A stretch of 64,000 nucleotides of DNA, taken from Bacillota bacterium. GTDB lineage: Bacteria > Bacillota > Limnochordia > DTU087. The translations under genes and the position numbers were made by a program. Each line of letters begins with the position of its first letter. Position 1 is the stretch's first letter. The stretch lies in the NCBI GenBank assembly GCA_012798695.1, contig JAAZMR010000037.1, positions 3,150 through 67,149 on the forward strand, given 5' to 3'. The notes beneath the pieces are model-generated. The model was not told the origin of the DNA, searched no databases, and saw only the letters and a list, made by a program, of their open reading frames with translations. This document shows, one piece after another, positions 52,821 through 60,594 of the stretch.

Positions 52821-54314
52821 TTAGCTAGCCAAGCAAAGCTTGCGCAAACGGTCCCCTGACAGCTTTTCTTCCTTGAGAAGTTCTTCAGCCAATATGCCTG
52901 CTATTGTCTGATGGCTGCTCAGCAGGTTCCGGACACGCTGTTCCTGCTCAGCAATGATGGTCTTTACCTCCTTATTCACATCTTCCGACAGAACATGCTG
53001 TTTGCTTACTACTCCCAAGCCGGACATTCCGCAATAAATCATCTGGTGTGCCGCGTCAACTGCCTGATCAAAATCACCCTTAGAGCCAGTGCTGCGGCTG
53101 CCGAAGACCATTTCTTCCATGATGGCTCCACCCAAAGCGATGGCGATCTGATCTAGCAGCTGTTGCTTCGAATATAAATAGCGATCACCTTCTGGAGCCT
53201 GGCGCATATAGCCCAAAGCTTGTCCTCTGGGAATCACCGTCAAAGAGGAAACTGAGCCTTTGCGAATGCTTTCACTCACCAGGGCATGACCGATCTCGTG
53301 GTAGGCGATCCTGCGTCTCTCCTCTTCTAGAGGTTGGCGATCTAGTTTCTCTCCCAACATGACTTTTTCCAGTGCCTCACGCAGGTCTTCCTCACGAATC
53401 ACATTCGACTGATTCCGCAAAGCATTAATAGCTGCTTCATTCAACAAGCTTTCCAGATGTGCTCCAGAGAAACCAAAGGTTTCACGTGCTATCTTGTCCA
53501 AATCCACACTAGCTGCCAAAGGCTTGTTTTTGGCGTGGATCCTGAGTATATGCAGCCGCCCTTCCTTGTCAGGTAAATCGACCCTAACCACCCGATCAAA
53601 CCGACCGGGCCGAATCAGCGCGGGATCTAGTAAATCAGGCCGGTTGGTCGCGCCCACCATCAGCACCCGCACTTCTGTCTCAGCATTTATTCCGTCCATT
53701 TCTACGAGCAGCTGATTCAGAGTCTGATCATACTCCAAATGGCTGCTGTGACGACCCCGCTTTCCCCCAATTACTTCGATCTCATCTATAAAGACAATCG
53801 CACTATCTTTTCCCTGATGTGCAGCTGCTTGTCTACCCATGTTAAACAGCTTACGTATTCTCTGTGCCCCAACTCCAGCATACATTTCTACAAAAGATGA
53901 GCCACTGGCGGAAACAAATGCAGAATCCGTAAAACTCGCAGCTGCCTTAGCCAAGAGAGTTTTGCCGGTACCCGGAGGCCCAACCAGCAAAATGCCTTTC
54001 AAAGGACGAATACCCAGACTTTGGCTTTTCTCTCGGTTACAGATGAATTCTAAAGCTTCTAGGAGCTCTCGTTTGGCGGTTTCTTGACCACCGATATCAT
54101 CAAAGGTGACTACAGGTCCTGTGGAATCACGCGCATCAAGGGTTACAGCCTCTAGCTTACGGCTACTGGAAAAACGCCCGGCAAACATCATCTGCAGTAG
54201 AACGGCCAGTCCCGCCATCACCACTATAGGGGTAATATCGACACCCCAGATCCCTAACGCGATGACCAAGGCGAAACCTGAACCTAGTGCTGCCTCTTTC
54301 CAGTAAATCTCCAC
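52821..54314 (-). CDS. Short FtsH-like AAA+ / M41 metalloprotease paralog
   Basis: GPPGTGKT, FVEMYAGVG, FIDEIE, ATNRPDLLDPALIRPGRFDR, HEIGH; N-terminal TMs with no extracytoplasmic domain; GTG start at ~54314. Confidence 0.88.
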   Translation of the reverse strand: MEIYWKEAALGSGFALVIALGIWGVDITPIVVMAGLAVLLQMMFAGRFSSSRKLEAVTLDARDSTGPVVTFDDIGGQETAKRELLEALEFICNREKSQSLGIRPLKGILLVGPPGTGKTLLAKAAASFTDSAFVSASGSSFVEMYAGVGAQRIRKLFNMGRQAAAHQGKDSAIVFIDEIEVIGGKRGRHSSHLEYDQTLNQLLVEMDGINAETEVRVLMVGATNRPDLLDPALIRPGRFDRVVRVDLPDKEGRLHILRIHAKNKPLAASVDLDKIARETFGFSGAHLESLLNEAAINALRNQSNVIREEDLREALEKVMLGEKLDRQPLEEERRRIAYHEIGHALVSESIRKGSVSSLTVIPRGQALGYMRQAPEGDRYLYSKQQLLDQIAIALGGAIMEEMVFGSRSTGSKGDFDQAVDAAHQMIYCGMSGLGVVSKQHVLSEDVNKEVKTIIAEQEQRVRNLLSSHQTIAGILAEELLKEEKLSGDRLRKLCLAS

Positions 54315-54319
54315 GGTCC

Positions 54320-54859
54320 TCACCCCTCTCGTTCTACACTTTTCCACGCCATCGCGTGATTGCGCGCAAACACCTGGTAAAGATGCTCAGGTCCATGGTG
54401 CATTGCCAAACAAACAAATTGCGGCCCTACCCAGATCTCGTAGTCCTCTATACCGCGATGGGCTAGTTCATTCTCAACACTGTTTACCATCAGCTGAAAC
54501 CGACCTGTAGCAATGCCTTCCTCAACAGCATAGTGGATGGCGTAAAGTGCCTCGGAAAGGATAGGACCCCTGCTATCTTGGATGAAGATCCGCTCAGGCG
54601 GTATCCCTGCCTGCTTTGATAACCTCAGCATCTCGTCATAAGCTATCTTGAACCCAATCCCCTCTTGCAGCTCCACAACTAGGCTAAGACCGTCCGCGTC
54701 GGATTTGATATGGGCGGTTTTCACCCCCGTAGTATCCAGGAATTCTGCTTCAAGGTTACTGAGCATATGCTGCCTAAAGACAAAACGCTGACCGAGCAGC
54801 AGCAGGGTCAGTGTAATTGCAAAAACTATGATCACGACCGGAATCCGTATTCTCCCCAT
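54320..54859 (-). CDS. Hypothetical membrane-anchored protein
   Basis: MGRIRIPVVIIVFAITLTLLLLG signal/TM anchor; couples to the FtsH-like gene; start uncertain. Confidence 0.7.
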   Translation of the reverse strand: MGRIRIPVVIIVFAITLTLLLLGQRFVFRQHMLSNLEAEFLDTTGVKTAHIKSDADGLSLVVELQEGIGFKIAYDEMLRLSKQAGIPPERIFIQDSRGPILSEALYAIHYAVEEGIATGRFQLMVNSVENELAHRGIEDYEIWVGPQFVCLAMHHGPEHLYQVFARNHAMAWKSVEREG

Positions 54860-55002
54860 TTGGCGCCCCTCCCACCTGTAAGTCATTATAACATGGGGAA
54901 GTAGGCCACGAGACATGTAATACCTGCCAGGGGGAGTCACTACCGGCAGACAACATCAAGCGGCAATTGAGGCGAATATAGCTTGGTTGGGTTGAGCATG
55001 CC

Positions 55003-56912: not shown

Positions 56913-56988
56913 TCAACTCTCACCCGTTTCTCTGTCAAAGACTGCAACTAGCCCATTGCGTATAGTGACGAATTTGATGCCCTAATTA

Positions 56989-57015
56989 CTTCTGTTAGTT
57001 TCGAGGAACTCCTGC
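56989..57015 (-). promoter_or_regulatory. sigmaH-like promoter candidate for rimO
   Basis: GCAGGAGTT-N11-ACAGAAG (GAAG for GAAT). Confidence 0.35.
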
Positions 57016-57143
57016 CCCACTCTCTGGCCCTGCCTGGGACTCAGATGGAGAAACGAACGCCCTAGCAGGGATGAGGCGTCTTCTGGTGGAACCATCTATT
57101 AGTAGACAGGATTAGTGTGGTAATGTACGAGAAAGGAGATCAT

Positions 57144-58100
57144 ATGCTAGTCCCCATCTTTCTCATTGCGGTTGCTTTACAGGTATGGTCCTGGTCACCC
57201 GCAGCCTACCCTTTCTTAGTTTTCCTCATGATCACGGGAGTTATGGTGGCCAACAATTTGGTTTTCATGTTACTATTCTGGCAAGGAGTCACATGGGCTG
57301 GATATCTCATTCTGATCGCCTCTCGGCGGAAGGCCTGGACTGCAGCTCTCTCTCCTCTTCAACATGATATGAATGCTTTCCAAGAAGATGACTCTCGCGG
57401 GCAACCGACCGGAATGAAAGCAGCTTTTCACCATGCACTGCTCTGGCAATTGATCGGTGATGTACTCTTGCTCTCCCTGCTATTTGTGGTCAATCCCCAC
57501 CTAACAGCGCCAATTGCGGCAGATACCTACACTGCATCTATTGCCTCTTGTTTGACGCCTTCCACAGGTTGGCTGGGCACCATGTTCTTCATCTTGGGTG
57601 CCACTACACTCCTTCTAAAAATAACAGCCTGGACCCTTATTCAAAAGGAAAGCTTGTCTCTTACCTTTTTGCATACAGATCAAATGTATGTCAATTCATT
57701 CTGGGTATCTATTACCCTAGTAGCACTATATCAAACAATACGCCTGGCACATGTTTGCTTGCCCTCAACCCATAATCTAGCCGGAACAATTGGAATAACG
57801 GTTTCCTTCATGGTGCTAGCCTACCTATTGCACAGCTGGATTGACTACTACGGACATAAGCATCTGTGGCTCCCTCAGATATTGCCACTCCTAGGTCATG
57901 GCACTTCCGGCTGGGACATCAGGCTTAGTTTGGGAGCACTTGATTTCGCTGTATCATCCTTGAGTACTTTGGGAGCTGCCTGTATTGAGTTTGAGACCCA
58001 CCTGGTGCAGCTGAGCCAAGGTCTTATGCGCGTGCTTCTGATCGCTCAATCAGTGCCAAGAAGAATTTACCGGCTTTTGTTCAGCAAAACGATTGACTAG
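57144..58100 (+). CDS. Truncated, degenerate NuoL/MrpA-like membrane protein (318 aa)
   Basis: ANNLVFMLLFWQGV..AGYLIL aligns by eye to NuoL ADNL...GWEGVGLCSYLLI, and LIGDV aligns to RVGDV. SD AAAGGAG before ATG 57144. Much of the family core is missing. Confidence 0.6.
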   Translation: MLVPIFLIAVALQVWSWSPAAYPFLVFLMITGVMVANNLVFMLLFWQGVTWAGYLILIASRRKAWTAALSPLQHDMNAFQEDDSRGQPTGMKAAFHHALLWQLIGDVLLLSLLFVVNPHLTAPIAADTYTASIASCLTPSTGWLGTMFFILGATTLLLKITAWTLIQKESLSLTFLHTDQMYVNSFWVSITLVALYQTIRLAHVCLPSTHNLAGTIGITVSFMVLAYLLHSWIDYYGHKHLWLPQILPLLGHGTSGWDIRLSLGALDFAVSSLSTLGAACIEFETHLVQLSQGLMRVLLIAQSVPRRIYRLLFSKTID

Positions 58101-58155
58101 CCTAGCAGAGTTTTTAGCTTATGTAGATTTTGCACAGTGACAGGAGGTCATCTCT

Positions 58156-59595
58156 GTGTTAACAACCCTAACGTTTTTCCCAGTAGCCGCAGCTTTACTA
58201 TTGATGCTCACACCCAAGGATAATCAAGAACTTCTATATAAGTTGAATATAGCAGTCTCGCTGGTGCCCTTCGTCTTGGTGCTCCTAGCCTGGCCCATGT
58301 TTTCTTTTGAGGAGCCGATCCTCTCTCTGCTGGAAAGCCGCGACTGCATACCCTCCATAGGTGTCTCCTATTCCTTGTTACTAGATGGAGTCAATCTCCC
58401 CTTTCTGGCCATGCTAACTTTTCTTACTGTTGTTGCAAGCCTCATACCACCACTACCAGGAGAGAATCTAAAAAAGAGAAGCATGCTGCTCCTCGTTTGG
58501 GAAGCCACTCTCATCGGCGCATTCCTAGCACAAGATTACGTTCTTTTCCTGATGTTTTGGGCACTGGGAACCATCCCCATATACTTCCTAATGGAGCCCT
58601 CCCTTGACTTAGAACCAATACCCACAACTCGATGTTATGTGTTGTCCAGCCTACTCAGCATAGTAGCTCTAGGCAGTGGTCTTCTGATCCTTTCTGCTAC
58701 GGTTGATACCTCCACCCCGACCATTAGCGAACTAGCGAGTTCTGTCGTAACCCACCTAGACCCAGACACTCAGTGGTGGATTTTTCTCGCTATCTTCGTG
58801 GGATGCTCCTTGCGTATCCCACTCTTCCCTTTTCACATATGGCTGCGGCTGATGATCAGCAAATTGCGGCCACCTGCTGGGATACTGCTGGTCGGAGGCT
58901 TCATCCCACTGGGAGTCTATACCCTGCTGCGCTTCGCCCTAGCAGTCTTGCCTGACGCAGTAGCAGCCTTTACGTTGGTCTTGGCCGCGGCAGGAATAGT
59001 GAATATGCTTTTCGGTTCACTAGCAGCTCTGGGGACACCAAATCGCCAGCACAAAGCCGCATATTATGTTATGGGCTATACAGGTACTGCTCTCCTAGGA
59101 ATGGCAACCCTGACTGTGGAGGGAATTAGTGGCGCCTTCTATACCATTCTTTCACTCGGGGCAGCCATCACCTTCTCCCTGACACTGACCTACCTGACAT
59201 CTAAGCAGATCACCTCCCAAGGGTGGCCTCTCGTCCTTCATGGCCTAGAAGCTGCTCAACAACTGCGCCTACCTGGTTTTGCCGGTTTTGTTGGCCTTAT
59301 GTTGGTCTTTCCCCCGGTATTTCACAGCTTTGCCGGCATGTCACTAGCTATCATAGCCGTTCTTTTTCTTACCGCCATTGATTATGCCCGGTCCTTGTCA
59401 GAAACCCTCGACAGGCCTGATATACAGAAAGCCCCTCACCCTCTAGATACCTCTAGTCTCCAATGGCCACCGATCGGGTTGGTGGCCGCAATCGTCCTGC
59501 TTCTCGGTGGAAGTGTAGTCTTGGGGCTAAACCCGGAGCTGATTCTGAAGGTTGTAGAGCCTGCCATTAAGCACGTAGCTCTCTTGCTGGACTGA
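58156..59595 (+). CDS. Degenerate NuoM/MrpD-like membrane protein (479 aa)
   Basis: IPSIGVSYSLLLDG, FLAQDYVLFLMFW..IPIYFL, IPLFPFHIWL, GVYTLLRF, LPGFAGFVG match NuoM; SD AGGAGG. Confidence 0.8.
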   Translation: MLTTLTFFPVAAALLLMLTPKDNQELLYKLNIAVSLVPFVLVLLAWPMFSFEEPILSLLESRDCIPSIGVSYSLLLDGVNLPFLAMLTFLTVVASLIPPLPGENLKKRSMLLLVWEATLIGAFLAQDYVLFLMFWALGTIPIYFLMEPSLDLEPIPTTRCYVLSSLLSIVALGSGLLILSATVDTSTPTISELASSVVTHLDPDTQWWIFLAIFVGCSLRIPLFPFHIWLRLMISKLRPPAGILLVGGFIPLGVYTLLRFALAVLPDAVAAFTLVLAAAGIVNMLFGSLAALGTPNRQHKAAYYVMGYTGTALLGMATLTVEGISGAFYTILSLGAAITFSLTLTYLTSKQITSQGWPLVLHGLEAAQQLRLPGFAGFVGLMLVFPPVFHSFAGMSLAIIAVLFLTAIDYARSLSETLDRPDIQKAPHPLDTSSLQWPPIGLVAAIVLLLGGSVVLGLNPELILKVVEPAIKHVALLLD

Positions 59596-59604
59596 TGAGC
59601 TAGC

Positions 59605-60594
59605 TTATACTTCATCTAGTGTCTCGAACTCTACTGGTGTGGACTGGAGCAGCTCCTGAATCACGTGTTCAGGGGCCCTCCCTCTTAGCTGGCTTTCTGG
59701 TTTCAGGATCAATCGATGACTTAAGATGGGCACCGCTACATGCTTGATATCATCGGGGAGCACATAGTCCCGCCCTCGCAAAGCTGCAAGGGCTTGCCCA
59801 GCCCGAAATAGAGCTAATGAACCGCGGGGGCTAGCGCCCAGAACTACATCAGAATGCCTGCGAGTCGCCTGAGTGAGCCTGACAATATACTCTCTTACGG
59901 AATCTTCGACATGTATTTTCCTGATCGCGTTCTGCATCTTGGTGAAAATCTCAGGAGTTGTACAGGCCTGGACGGCTTCGATGGGATGCTCATATTGTAG
60001 GCGAATGAGGATTTCATTTTCCTCTATTTCAGCAGGATAGCCGATCTGCAGTCGCAGTAAGAACCGATCTAACTGGGCCTCAGGTAAAGGGAAGGTGCCT
60101 TCATATTCCACTGGGTTTTGTGTAGCCATGACCAGGAAAGGTTTCGGCAGCCGCCGTGTCTTGCCATCAACCGTGATCTGGCCTTCTGCCATGCATTCCA
60201 GCAAACTAGATTGAGTTCTGGGTGTGGCGCGGTTGATCTCATCAGCCAATAGAATCTGCGACATGACTGGACCGGGCCTGAAGACAAATTCGCCGCTGCG
60301 TGGTTCATAGACTGAGACACCGGTTACATCTGAAGGCAAGAGATCAGGTGTACACTGAATGCGGCTGAAACTGCATCCCAAAGATACCGCCATAGTCCGT
60401 GCCAGAATTGTCTTCCCCACCCCCGGCACGTCTTCAACCAATACATGGCCCTCACTCAGCAAAGCCACCAACAGCAATTCTACAGCCTCAGTCTTACCGA
60501 TGATTACCTGACCAACGTTGTCCATTATCTTTTGACACAGTAGAGCTATTCTTTCCACATCCACTCTGTCTTTGCCACGGTTTCCGTCCACCAT
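59605..60594 (-). CDS. MoxR-family AAA+ ATPase
   Basis: EDVPGVGKT, RIQCTPDLLPSDVTG, LADEINRATPRTQSSLLE, ATQNPVEYEGTFPLPEAQLDRF. Confidence 0.95.
   Translation of the reverse strand: MVDGNRGKDRVDVERIALLCQKIMDNVGQVIIGKTEAVELLLVALLSEGHVLVEDVPGVGKTILARTMAVSLGCSFSRIQCTPDLLPSDVTGVSVYEPRSGEFVFRPGPVMSQILLADEINRATPRTQSSLLECMAEGQITVDGKTRRLPKPFLVMATQNPVEYEGTFPLPEAQLDRFLLRLQIGYPAEIEENEILIRLQYEHPIEAVQACTTPEIFTKMQNAIRKIHVEDSVREYIVRLTQATRRHSDVVLGASPRGSLALFRAGQALAALRGRDYVLPDDIKHVAVPILSHRLILKPESQLRGRAPEHVIQELLQSTPVEFETLDEV

Follow-up and report, generated by a model that had tools for sequence, protein, structure and literature searches.

A NuoL-like and NuoM-like gene pair with no complex I genes nearby, in uncultured Bacillota

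Why would a bacterium keep two adjacent genes related to antiporter-like subunits of respiratory complex I where no other gene of such a complex lies nearby? The question is raised by a stretch of 64,000 nucleotides (the window) of contig JAAZMR010000037.1 from a Bacillota bacterium (assembly GCA_012798695.1), which carries on its plus strand gene 1 (57144-58100, 318 amino acids (aa)) and gene 2 (58156-59595, 479 aa). The initial annotation had noted that no other nuo, mrp or hydrogenase genes flank the pair, and this holds for the whole 64-kb window: in a six-frame translation searched with a NuoM hidden Markov model (HMM) built from 101 canonical sequences, gene 2 is the sole match, and a scan of the open reading frames (ORFs) revealed no nuo, mrp or hydrogenase gene besides the pair. 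Nor did we find such partner genes in the flanks (up to 10 kb each) of the ten loci at which the family was located, namely L001, L003, L005, L086, L089, L090, L091, L095, L096 and the window itself.

The answer towards which we lean, if only slightly, is that the pair represents a relic of a nuoL-nuoM type module, the M-type member having turned into a non-pumping membrane protein and the L-type member being in decay. This leaning starts from what was observed directly, i.e. homology, relay loss, selection, synteny, decay pattern and transcription.

A NuoM-type protein with a replaced relay

Judging from its sequence, gene 2 codes for a full-length NuoM/ND4-type antiporter-like protein with the complete 14-helix architecture. 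It matches PF00361 (Proton_antipo_M) over residues 125-334 (58528-59157, plus strand; E=1.2e-14, 54.7 bits against a gathering cut-off of 21.5) and the NuoM model TIGR01972 over its full length (2-474 of 486 model positions, E=2e-54). The latter score lies under the cut-off of that model (184.9 versus 263.8 bits), and gene 2 likewise falls short of every curated NuoM/NdhD model (NF0045xx equivalogs), of the equivalogs by far. Models of rival families are weaker still (MrpD 48 bits, NuoN 24, HyfB 25; NdhD also scores below NuoM), and the distance to the thresholds is very large for both Mrp (48.3 versus 542 bits for NF009306, 21.3 versus 692 for TIGR00944) and hydrogenases (24.9 versus 667 bits for hydrogenase 4 subunit B, and 32.9 versus 794). 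The nearest solved structures by sequence are NdhD1 (6hum_D), NdhD3 (6tjv_D), plant Nad4/NdhD and mycobacterial NuoM. Consistently, nearly all top matches of a Foldseek search with the predicted model were M/ND4/NdhD chains, the few from MrpD, subunit N and HycC having weaker E-values, and 6hum_D, 6tjv_D, 8e9g_M and 8qby_M are among the best matches by both sequence and fold.

In a tree rooted on NuoL, gene 2 and its relatives form a single clade (support 100) on a long stem, nested in the subunit-M group, and their grouping with the Bacillota NuoM of Halobacillus and the canonical sequence P0020 is weak (support 82). The family is small and sharply set apart: among 5.8 billion proteins we recovered about 17 clusters of relatives at 35-66% identity, after which the score falls from 234 to 113 bits, where canonical NuoM begins. 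All members come from uncultured 'Firmicutes bacterium' metagenome-assembled genomes (MAGs) or from digester metagenomes, and their deposited names, if any, are 'hypothetical protein'. A profile scan of genome contigs with the family alignment was dominated by canonical NuoM, with no family member among the matches listed (at least 599), and a family-specific DNA pattern of 51 bits had no match in the metagenome contigs scanned.

What distinguishes the family is the set of charged residues that form the lateral proton relay in this type of subunit, as seen when 15 members are aligned with 101 canonical NuoM sequences. The Glu of transmembrane helix (TM) 5, which is Glu in 90 and Asp in 9 of the canonical sequences, is replaced by Ala136 (58561-58563, plus strand, as for all codons given here; Ala in 13 members, Thr and Val in one each). 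This position aligns with E144 of Thermosynechococcus elongatus NdhD1 (6hum_D), and we take the TM5 Glu to be E144 in E. coli NuoM numbering as well. The TM7 Lys (100/101) is Arg220 (58813-58815) in all 15 members, and the central TM8 Lys (100/101) is Pro251 (58906-58908), again in all 15. The TM11 His (99/101) is replaced by Tyr308 (59077-59079; Tyr in 13/15) and the TM12 Glu (99/101) by Leu381 (59296-59298; Leu in 13, otherwise Ile or Phe). Moreover, the His of the WLPDAH motif, present in 87 of the canonical sequences, is Leu, Ile or Met at residue 234. By its relay, the family therefore stands outside subunit M, with Ala, Arg, Pro, Tyr and Leu at the five sites in 13-15 of the 15 members, and the possibility left open by the initial annotation that these residues might be standard is contradicted for gene 2.

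The fold-shaping residues, by contrast, are retained (P222, P225, H227, W229, G253, Y255, R259, P373, G374, G377 and F378), including the TM7 motif P-x-x-P-x-H-x-W-L and the TM12 motif L-P-G-x-x-G-F, whose Pro, Gly, His and Trp residues are those that shape the broken helices TM7 and TM12. The family has also acquired invariants of its own: QWW206-208, K300, R371 and, in the middle of TM4, E116 (58501-58503), which is Glu in 15/15 members whereas canonical NuoM mostly has Ser (47), Glu (16) or Thr (12). Since the relay residues are replaced, the canonical lateral relay, as its mechanism is established, should be unable to run in gene 2. This protein has very probably lost the ability to translocate protons or Na+ in the canonical way.

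Might gene 2 still transport ions or solutes along a re-wired polar path made of Glu116, Asp127, Arg220, His227 and Lys300? All of them show little or no variation among the 15 members, Glu116 would lie beside the TM5 site that has no Glu, and a Glu116-Arg220 pair could replace the Glu-Lys pair, their proximity being expected from the known fold. We nevertheless regard such a path as improbable, because the TM8 Lys, TM11 His and TM12 Glu have given way to Pro, Tyr and Leu and no charge that would make up for them was found, because Arg is a poor proton carrier, and because the ortholog at locus L096 has none of Glu116, Asp127, Arg220 and Lys300.

Concerning selection, the two closest ortholog pairs with available DNA give ratios of nonsynonymous to synonymous substitution rates (dN/dS) of 0.13 and 0.15 at unsaturated dS of 0.76 and 0.91, close to the 0.10 of rimO (a neighbouring hypothetical protein gives 0.18 and moxR 0.05). 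The alignment of the 15 members has 49 invariant columns, neither stops nor frameshifts were found among the 15 proteins or in any ortholog fetched, and over 17 lineages have an intact copy. Contigs in the metatranscriptomes of two independent studies map to 58365-58758 with 99-100% identity (0-2 mismatches), which is weak but positive evidence that gene 2 is transcribed.

The NuoL-like partner and the deletion of its core

Gene 1 is a polytopic membrane protein of about 6-8 helices that is far harder to place. It has no match in Pfam or NCBIfam at E-values up to 1, PF00361 and PF00662 included, and none in PADLOC. An exhaustive profile search of 1.84 billion representatives returned only 15 proteins, all of one small family, and a scan of metagenome contigs with the gene 1 alignment gave no match. 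Comparison with the gene 2 family by hhalign had no significance, and Foldseek found no meaningful match for the predicted model.

The initial annotation had nonetheless suggested a resemblance to NuoL, and profile comparisons partly support it. A core at residues 24-219 (57213-57800, plus strand) corresponds to TM4-TM8 of NuoL: against a profile of 35 operon-encoded NuoL (taken from nuo operons in the loci of the genome-contig scan), hhalign aligns residues 30-219 colinearly with TM4-TM8 at E=6.7e-5 and a score of 44.3, whereas the reversed profile reaches 17, 20 column-shuffled profiles reach 12-23 and NuoM reaches 29.0. The NuoL HMM detects gene 1 at a per-sequence E=1.5e-4 and matches seven of eight family members in one register (E=3e-7 to 9e-4; reversed controls E of at least 0.02), and a profile search of the PDB retrieved the NuoL chain 8qby_L (residues 124-169, E=0.039). 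Within this core, the TM5 motif is FWQG, as opposed to GWEG in canonical NuoL, and the Glu site is Gln, Leu or Val in the gene 1 family. Gene 1 also lies directly upstream of an M-like gene, as nuoL does in nuo operons. The resemblance stops there: at 318 aa gene 1 has half the size of NuoL (about 600-700 aa), matches no family, and has about 6-8 helices instead of about 14-16 TM plus a long C-terminal lateral helix, and TM1-3 and TM9-16 are unrecognisable. On these profile alignments, gene 1 is homologous to NuoL in part and is not a member of the subunit-L family.

The part of gene 1 that is conserved lies elsewhere. An alignment of 20 full-length and short forms delimits a C-terminal domain of about 100 aa (residues ~205-318, 57756-58097, plus strand), which is the sole part present in all forms and consists of a TM helix, a loop, a second TM helix ending in F-E/D, and a basic amphipathic helix. 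AlphaFold2 predicts, with low confidence, a single long helix at residues 254-314. This domain shows no similarity to the NuoL or NuoM profiles.

The NuoL-like core, on the other hand, has been lost repeatedly. Gene 1 has 318 aa in the window, 315 in L086, 303 in L095, 302 in L092 (protein P0138) and 283 in L005, whereas it has shrunk to 154 aa in L090, 140 in L091, 122 in protein P0135 and 116 in both L003 and L089, and is absent from L001. In the short forms an N-terminal helix is fused in frame to the C-terminal domain with the start codon kept, and the forms of 154, 140, 122 and 116 aa (L090, L091, P0135, and L003 with L089) go back to independent deletions. The dN/dS of gene 1 is 0.42-0.44. 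It is therefore a fast-evolving gene under relaxed constraint, with a dispensable NuoL-like core.

In L003 (2781-4358) and L089 (5651-7243), rimO is called at 525-530 aa, as compared with about 443 aa elsewhere; the extra N-terminus extends into the space where the gene 1 core has been deleted and is probably an over-call.

Taken as a whole, the pair had been read in the initial annotation as a repurposed membrane module under selection and not as decay. This stands for gene 2, which is intact, evolves at low dN/dS and carries non-standard residues, its orthologs showing neither the frameshifts nor the dN/dS near 1 that neutral decay would bring; for gene 1 it lacks support as worded. The opposite view, that neither gene functions any longer and both are in the process of being lost, could draw on the repeated loss and dN/dS of about 0.4 of gene 1, and on the very long stem branch, the extreme divergence in L096 and the missing catalytic residues of gene 2. 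We consider it highly unlikely, given the low dN/dS of gene 2 and its freedom from stops and frameshifts in so many lineages, the strong ribosome-binding sites, the conserved upstream element described below and the RNA contigs; even in gene 1, the deletions preserve the reading frame, the start codon and the C-terminal domain.

A conserved upstream element, known systems and a possible role

A conserved non-coding element precedes the pair at 56988-57103 (plus strand). It comprises four blocks: ACTTCTGTTAGTTTC (56988-57002, pattern ACTTCTG..TTTC), GGAACTCCTGCC (57005-57016), (G/A)GCAGGGATG, also written GGCAGGGATG (57064-57073), and GGTGGAAC (57085-57092), after which comes CATCTATTA. The blocks are nearly invariant in eight aligned loci where the coding genes are only 43-66% identical at the aa level, and in L001, which has no gene 1, they stand directly ahead of gene 2. 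The element was present in every family locus examined. Each family locus contains a single copy of the pattern CTCCTGC-N20-50-GCAGGGA, whose one match elsewhere lies in the unrelated locus L050. This conservation supports the presence of a dedicated, conserved control region for the pair, and the element could be a promoter/operator or a leader.

As to its nature, an imperfect inverted repeat, TCCTGC/GCAGGG, spans a variable 40-60 nucleotides (nt). We dropped a riboswitch or other RNA structure, since the sole consensus helix has six invariant pairs and no covariation and folding gives a z-score of 0.74; a search of Rfam with gathering and E-value thresholds found no RNA family in the leader. 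A conserved small leader peptide, as well as sigma-54, ECF and sporulation-sigma promoters, fitted inconsistently by eye.

How does the pair relate to characterized systems? Gene 2 resembles NuoM/Nqo13/ND4/NdhD of complex I/NDH-1 in its full-length colinear match, its tree position and its TM7/TM12 motifs, and differs by the five replaced relay residues, the sub-cut-off scores and the lack of nuo neighbours. Antiporter-like subunits normally act within complexes, and one could suppose that the pair are working subunits of an 11- or 14-subunit complex I, a Mrp-like antiporter or an Ech/Mbh-type hydrogenase, the remaining genes of which are located in another part of the genome; the purifying selection on gene 2 and its transcription would suit this role, as they would any function. 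We think this unlikely, because the relay that such complexes need is replaced family-wide, because gene 2 evolves much faster than expected of a core respiratory subunit (23-66% identity at RecA identities of 82-92%), because gene 1 is lost or cut to about 115-150 aa in many lineages, and because no partner gene lies in the window or around the family loci.

An arrangement of one L-type and one M-type gene in a small unit off the main operon is found in the cyanobacterial ndhF3-ndhD3-cupA and ndhF4-ndhD4-cupB modules (NDH-1MS), and NdhD1 and NdhD3 provide the best solved sequence matches of gene 2. However, the NDH-1MS subunits have an intact relay, attach to a full NDH-1 core and are accompanied by CupA/B; no such feature was seen for the pair.

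No precedent for an orphan NuoM without its relay turned up in the literature searched, which gave DAB/MpsAB as the known orphan antiporter-like systems. These two-gene units of Bacillota and autotrophs associate a PF00361 protein outside complex I (DabB/MpsA) with DabA/MpsB (10.1101/476713; PMC13144422). Our pair is similar in being a two-gene unit with a PF00361 protein away from complex I. However, no DabA (PF10070/DUF2309, about 800-1000 aa) adjoins it, and no DUF2309 gene is present, in any of the ten family loci, and gene 1, the only adjacent partner of gene 2, is unrelated to DabA and matches no family. DabB, moreover, is NuoL-like and retains its functional polar residues.

With MrpA/MrpD of the Mrp (CPA3) antiporters, gene 2 shares the superfamily and weak matches (7d3u_A, 7qru_D), but it reaches 21-48 bits where MrpD cut-offs are 540-690, and mrpB, C, E, F and G are missing nearby. 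HyfB/HycC, EchA and MbhH can be set apart in the same way, gene 2 lying under their family cut-offs and the window having no hydrogenase genes.

We therefore return to the relic of a nuoL-nuoM type module. The L-then-M order is typical of nuo operons and, together with the homologies and the decay pattern, it fits such an origin. The module would have outlived the rest of a complex-I-like operon, with gene 2 holding the NuoM fold while all ionisable residues of the lateral relay were replaced and transport, presumably, was lost. Since gene 2 is under purifying selection, transcribed and preceded by its own upstream element, it would most likely be kept for a non-pumping membrane role, as a scaffold, partner or regulator. 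The antiporter-like core of gene 1 would be in the course of deletion, and its remaining C-terminal domain of about 100 aa is probably a small partner of gene 2.

A more specific version, which we put forward as a rather speculative possibility, is that exaptation turned the NuoM fold into a 'pseudo-antiporter' that transports nothing and works with a small TM and amphipathic-helix protein under the control of the upstream element. The small partner would then be what is left of a former NuoL, namely its C-terminal domain, which might derive from the NuoL lateral-helix clamp. If true, the pseudo-antiporter would be a natural minimal L-clamp/M pair that has outlived complex I.

Several observations weigh against the relic scenario and the non-pumping role that it assigns to gene 2. 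The homology between gene 1 and NuoL has weak support (a probability of 64% in hhalign), and one member of its family, P0138, is matched about equally by the NuoL and NuoM profiles. The AlphaFold2 models are poor for both genes, with predicted local distance difference test values of 50.5 for gene 1 and 58.6 for gene 2, both built on shallow alignments, so that our structural statements rest on sequence alignment. The RNA contigs are thin support, being of low depth and possibly derived from DNA carry-over. Finally, the L096 ortholog, which lacks four residues otherwise characteristic of the family, may keep the TM8 Lys, and its divergence means that constraint is not uniform across the clade.

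The pair may be of interest beyond this lineage. It would provide a natural separation of the residues of the antiporter fold, which are kept, from those that move protons, all of which are lost, and could thus be useful in the debate on the mechanism of complex I and Mrp. Gene 2 would clearly exemplify a 'pseudo-transporter' that derives from a transporter and is maintained by selection, and the in-frame shrinkage of its NuoL-like partner offers a stepwise view of the decay of a complex-I module. More practically, a PF00361/'NuoM' match of this kind can mislead automated metabolic reconstruction of digester MAGs into calling a respiratory complex I.

Gene neighbourhood and variation among relatives

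The initial annotation had described two plus-strand genes with strong Shine-Dalgarno (SD) sequences, divergent from rimO and convergent on moxR, and the ORFs and SDs are as claimed. Gene 1 most likely starts at ATG 57144 (the ORF is open from 57117), with the SD AAAGGAG at 57132-57138 (plus strand) 5 nt ahead, of which AA.GGAG is unchanged in eight loci; gene 2 starts at GTG 58156, with the SD AGGAGG at 58142-58147 (plus strand) 8 nt ahead. On the minus strand, rimO (55521-56852/56912) diverges from gene 1, and moxR (AAA_3, 59605-60594) converges with gene 2 across a gap of 9 bp (59596-59604).

This arrangement is well conserved. A PF00361 gene adjoins rimO in the ten independent loci, usually with a form of gene 1 ahead, the contig of L091 stopping short of rimO. 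In nine of the ten, gene 2 is convergent on moxR with stops -4 to 36 bp apart (e.g. L001, L086, L090 and L095). Such spacing leaves no room for terminators, and the transcripts must overlap or read into each other. The exception is L096 (RecA 82% identical; L096:602-3464), where a D12-class DNA methyltransferase takes the place of the moxR-DUF4129-DUF58 operon while the PF00361 gene (Pfam E=1.6e-8; 23.5% identical to gene 2) remains by rimO. A 141-aa ORF with no evident similarity to gene 1 lies upstream of it.

A functional link of the pair to the moxR-DUF4129-DUF58 operon is weakened and appears positional only, because the L096 gene persists without that operon. PADLOC found no defence system match for either the pair or the moxR operon.

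Two further relatives differ in their surroundings. In L094, a 1.7-Mb contig (GCA_900198705.1; RecA 84% identical), the region upstream of cinA is rearranged (TctA, PdxA, cupin, racemase), and rimO and the pair do not lie within 10 kb. The most divergent lineage is represented by contigs L092 and L093, which do not overlap, so that adjacency of genes 1 and 2 is unproven there. Both are from one sequencing run. An imperfect inverted repeat of some 33 bp with the core GGCAGAAGGGAGTATTTTCA is found at the start of L092 (L092:1-50), upstream of the gene 1 homolog P0138, and at the end of L093 (L093:1600-1710), downstream of the gene 2 homolog P0019. The pair may be bracketed by inverted repeats in this lineage, or the contigs may simply break at the repeat.

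The host clade consists of uncultured spore-forming digester Bacillota. Among RecA proteins, those of unclassified Firmicutes MAGs come closest (83-92%) and those of Limnochordia MAGs come next (79-80%), and the sequence is present in biogas-fermenter, anaerobic-digester and landfill metagenomes. The window has a strong strand bias, with 54 of 58 ORFs of at least 90 aa on the minus strand, and the pair accounts for two of the four exceptions; the GC content shows no anomaly. Scans for promoters, terminators and repeats around the pair gave nothing that exceeds chance. All other ORFs scanned are housekeeping genes, among them thr/asp genes, spoIVA, plsY, der, spoIIP, ispH-S1, cmk, aro genes, trkH, dacF, scpAB, lysA, recA and others.

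Downstream of the pair, moxR is followed by genes for a DUF4129 membrane protein and a DUF58 protein. The upstream minus-strand genes are rimO, pgsA, a 206-aa hypothetical protein, an FtsH-like AAA/M41 protein and an Rrf2 regulator. The FtsH-like protein is short, with 508 aa comprising an AAA domain from residue 119 and a peptidase M41 domain; its gene is always followed by that of a conserved protein of 175-206 aa without family match (together at 52821-54940 in the window), and the two form a unit with pgsA and rimO in all relatives.

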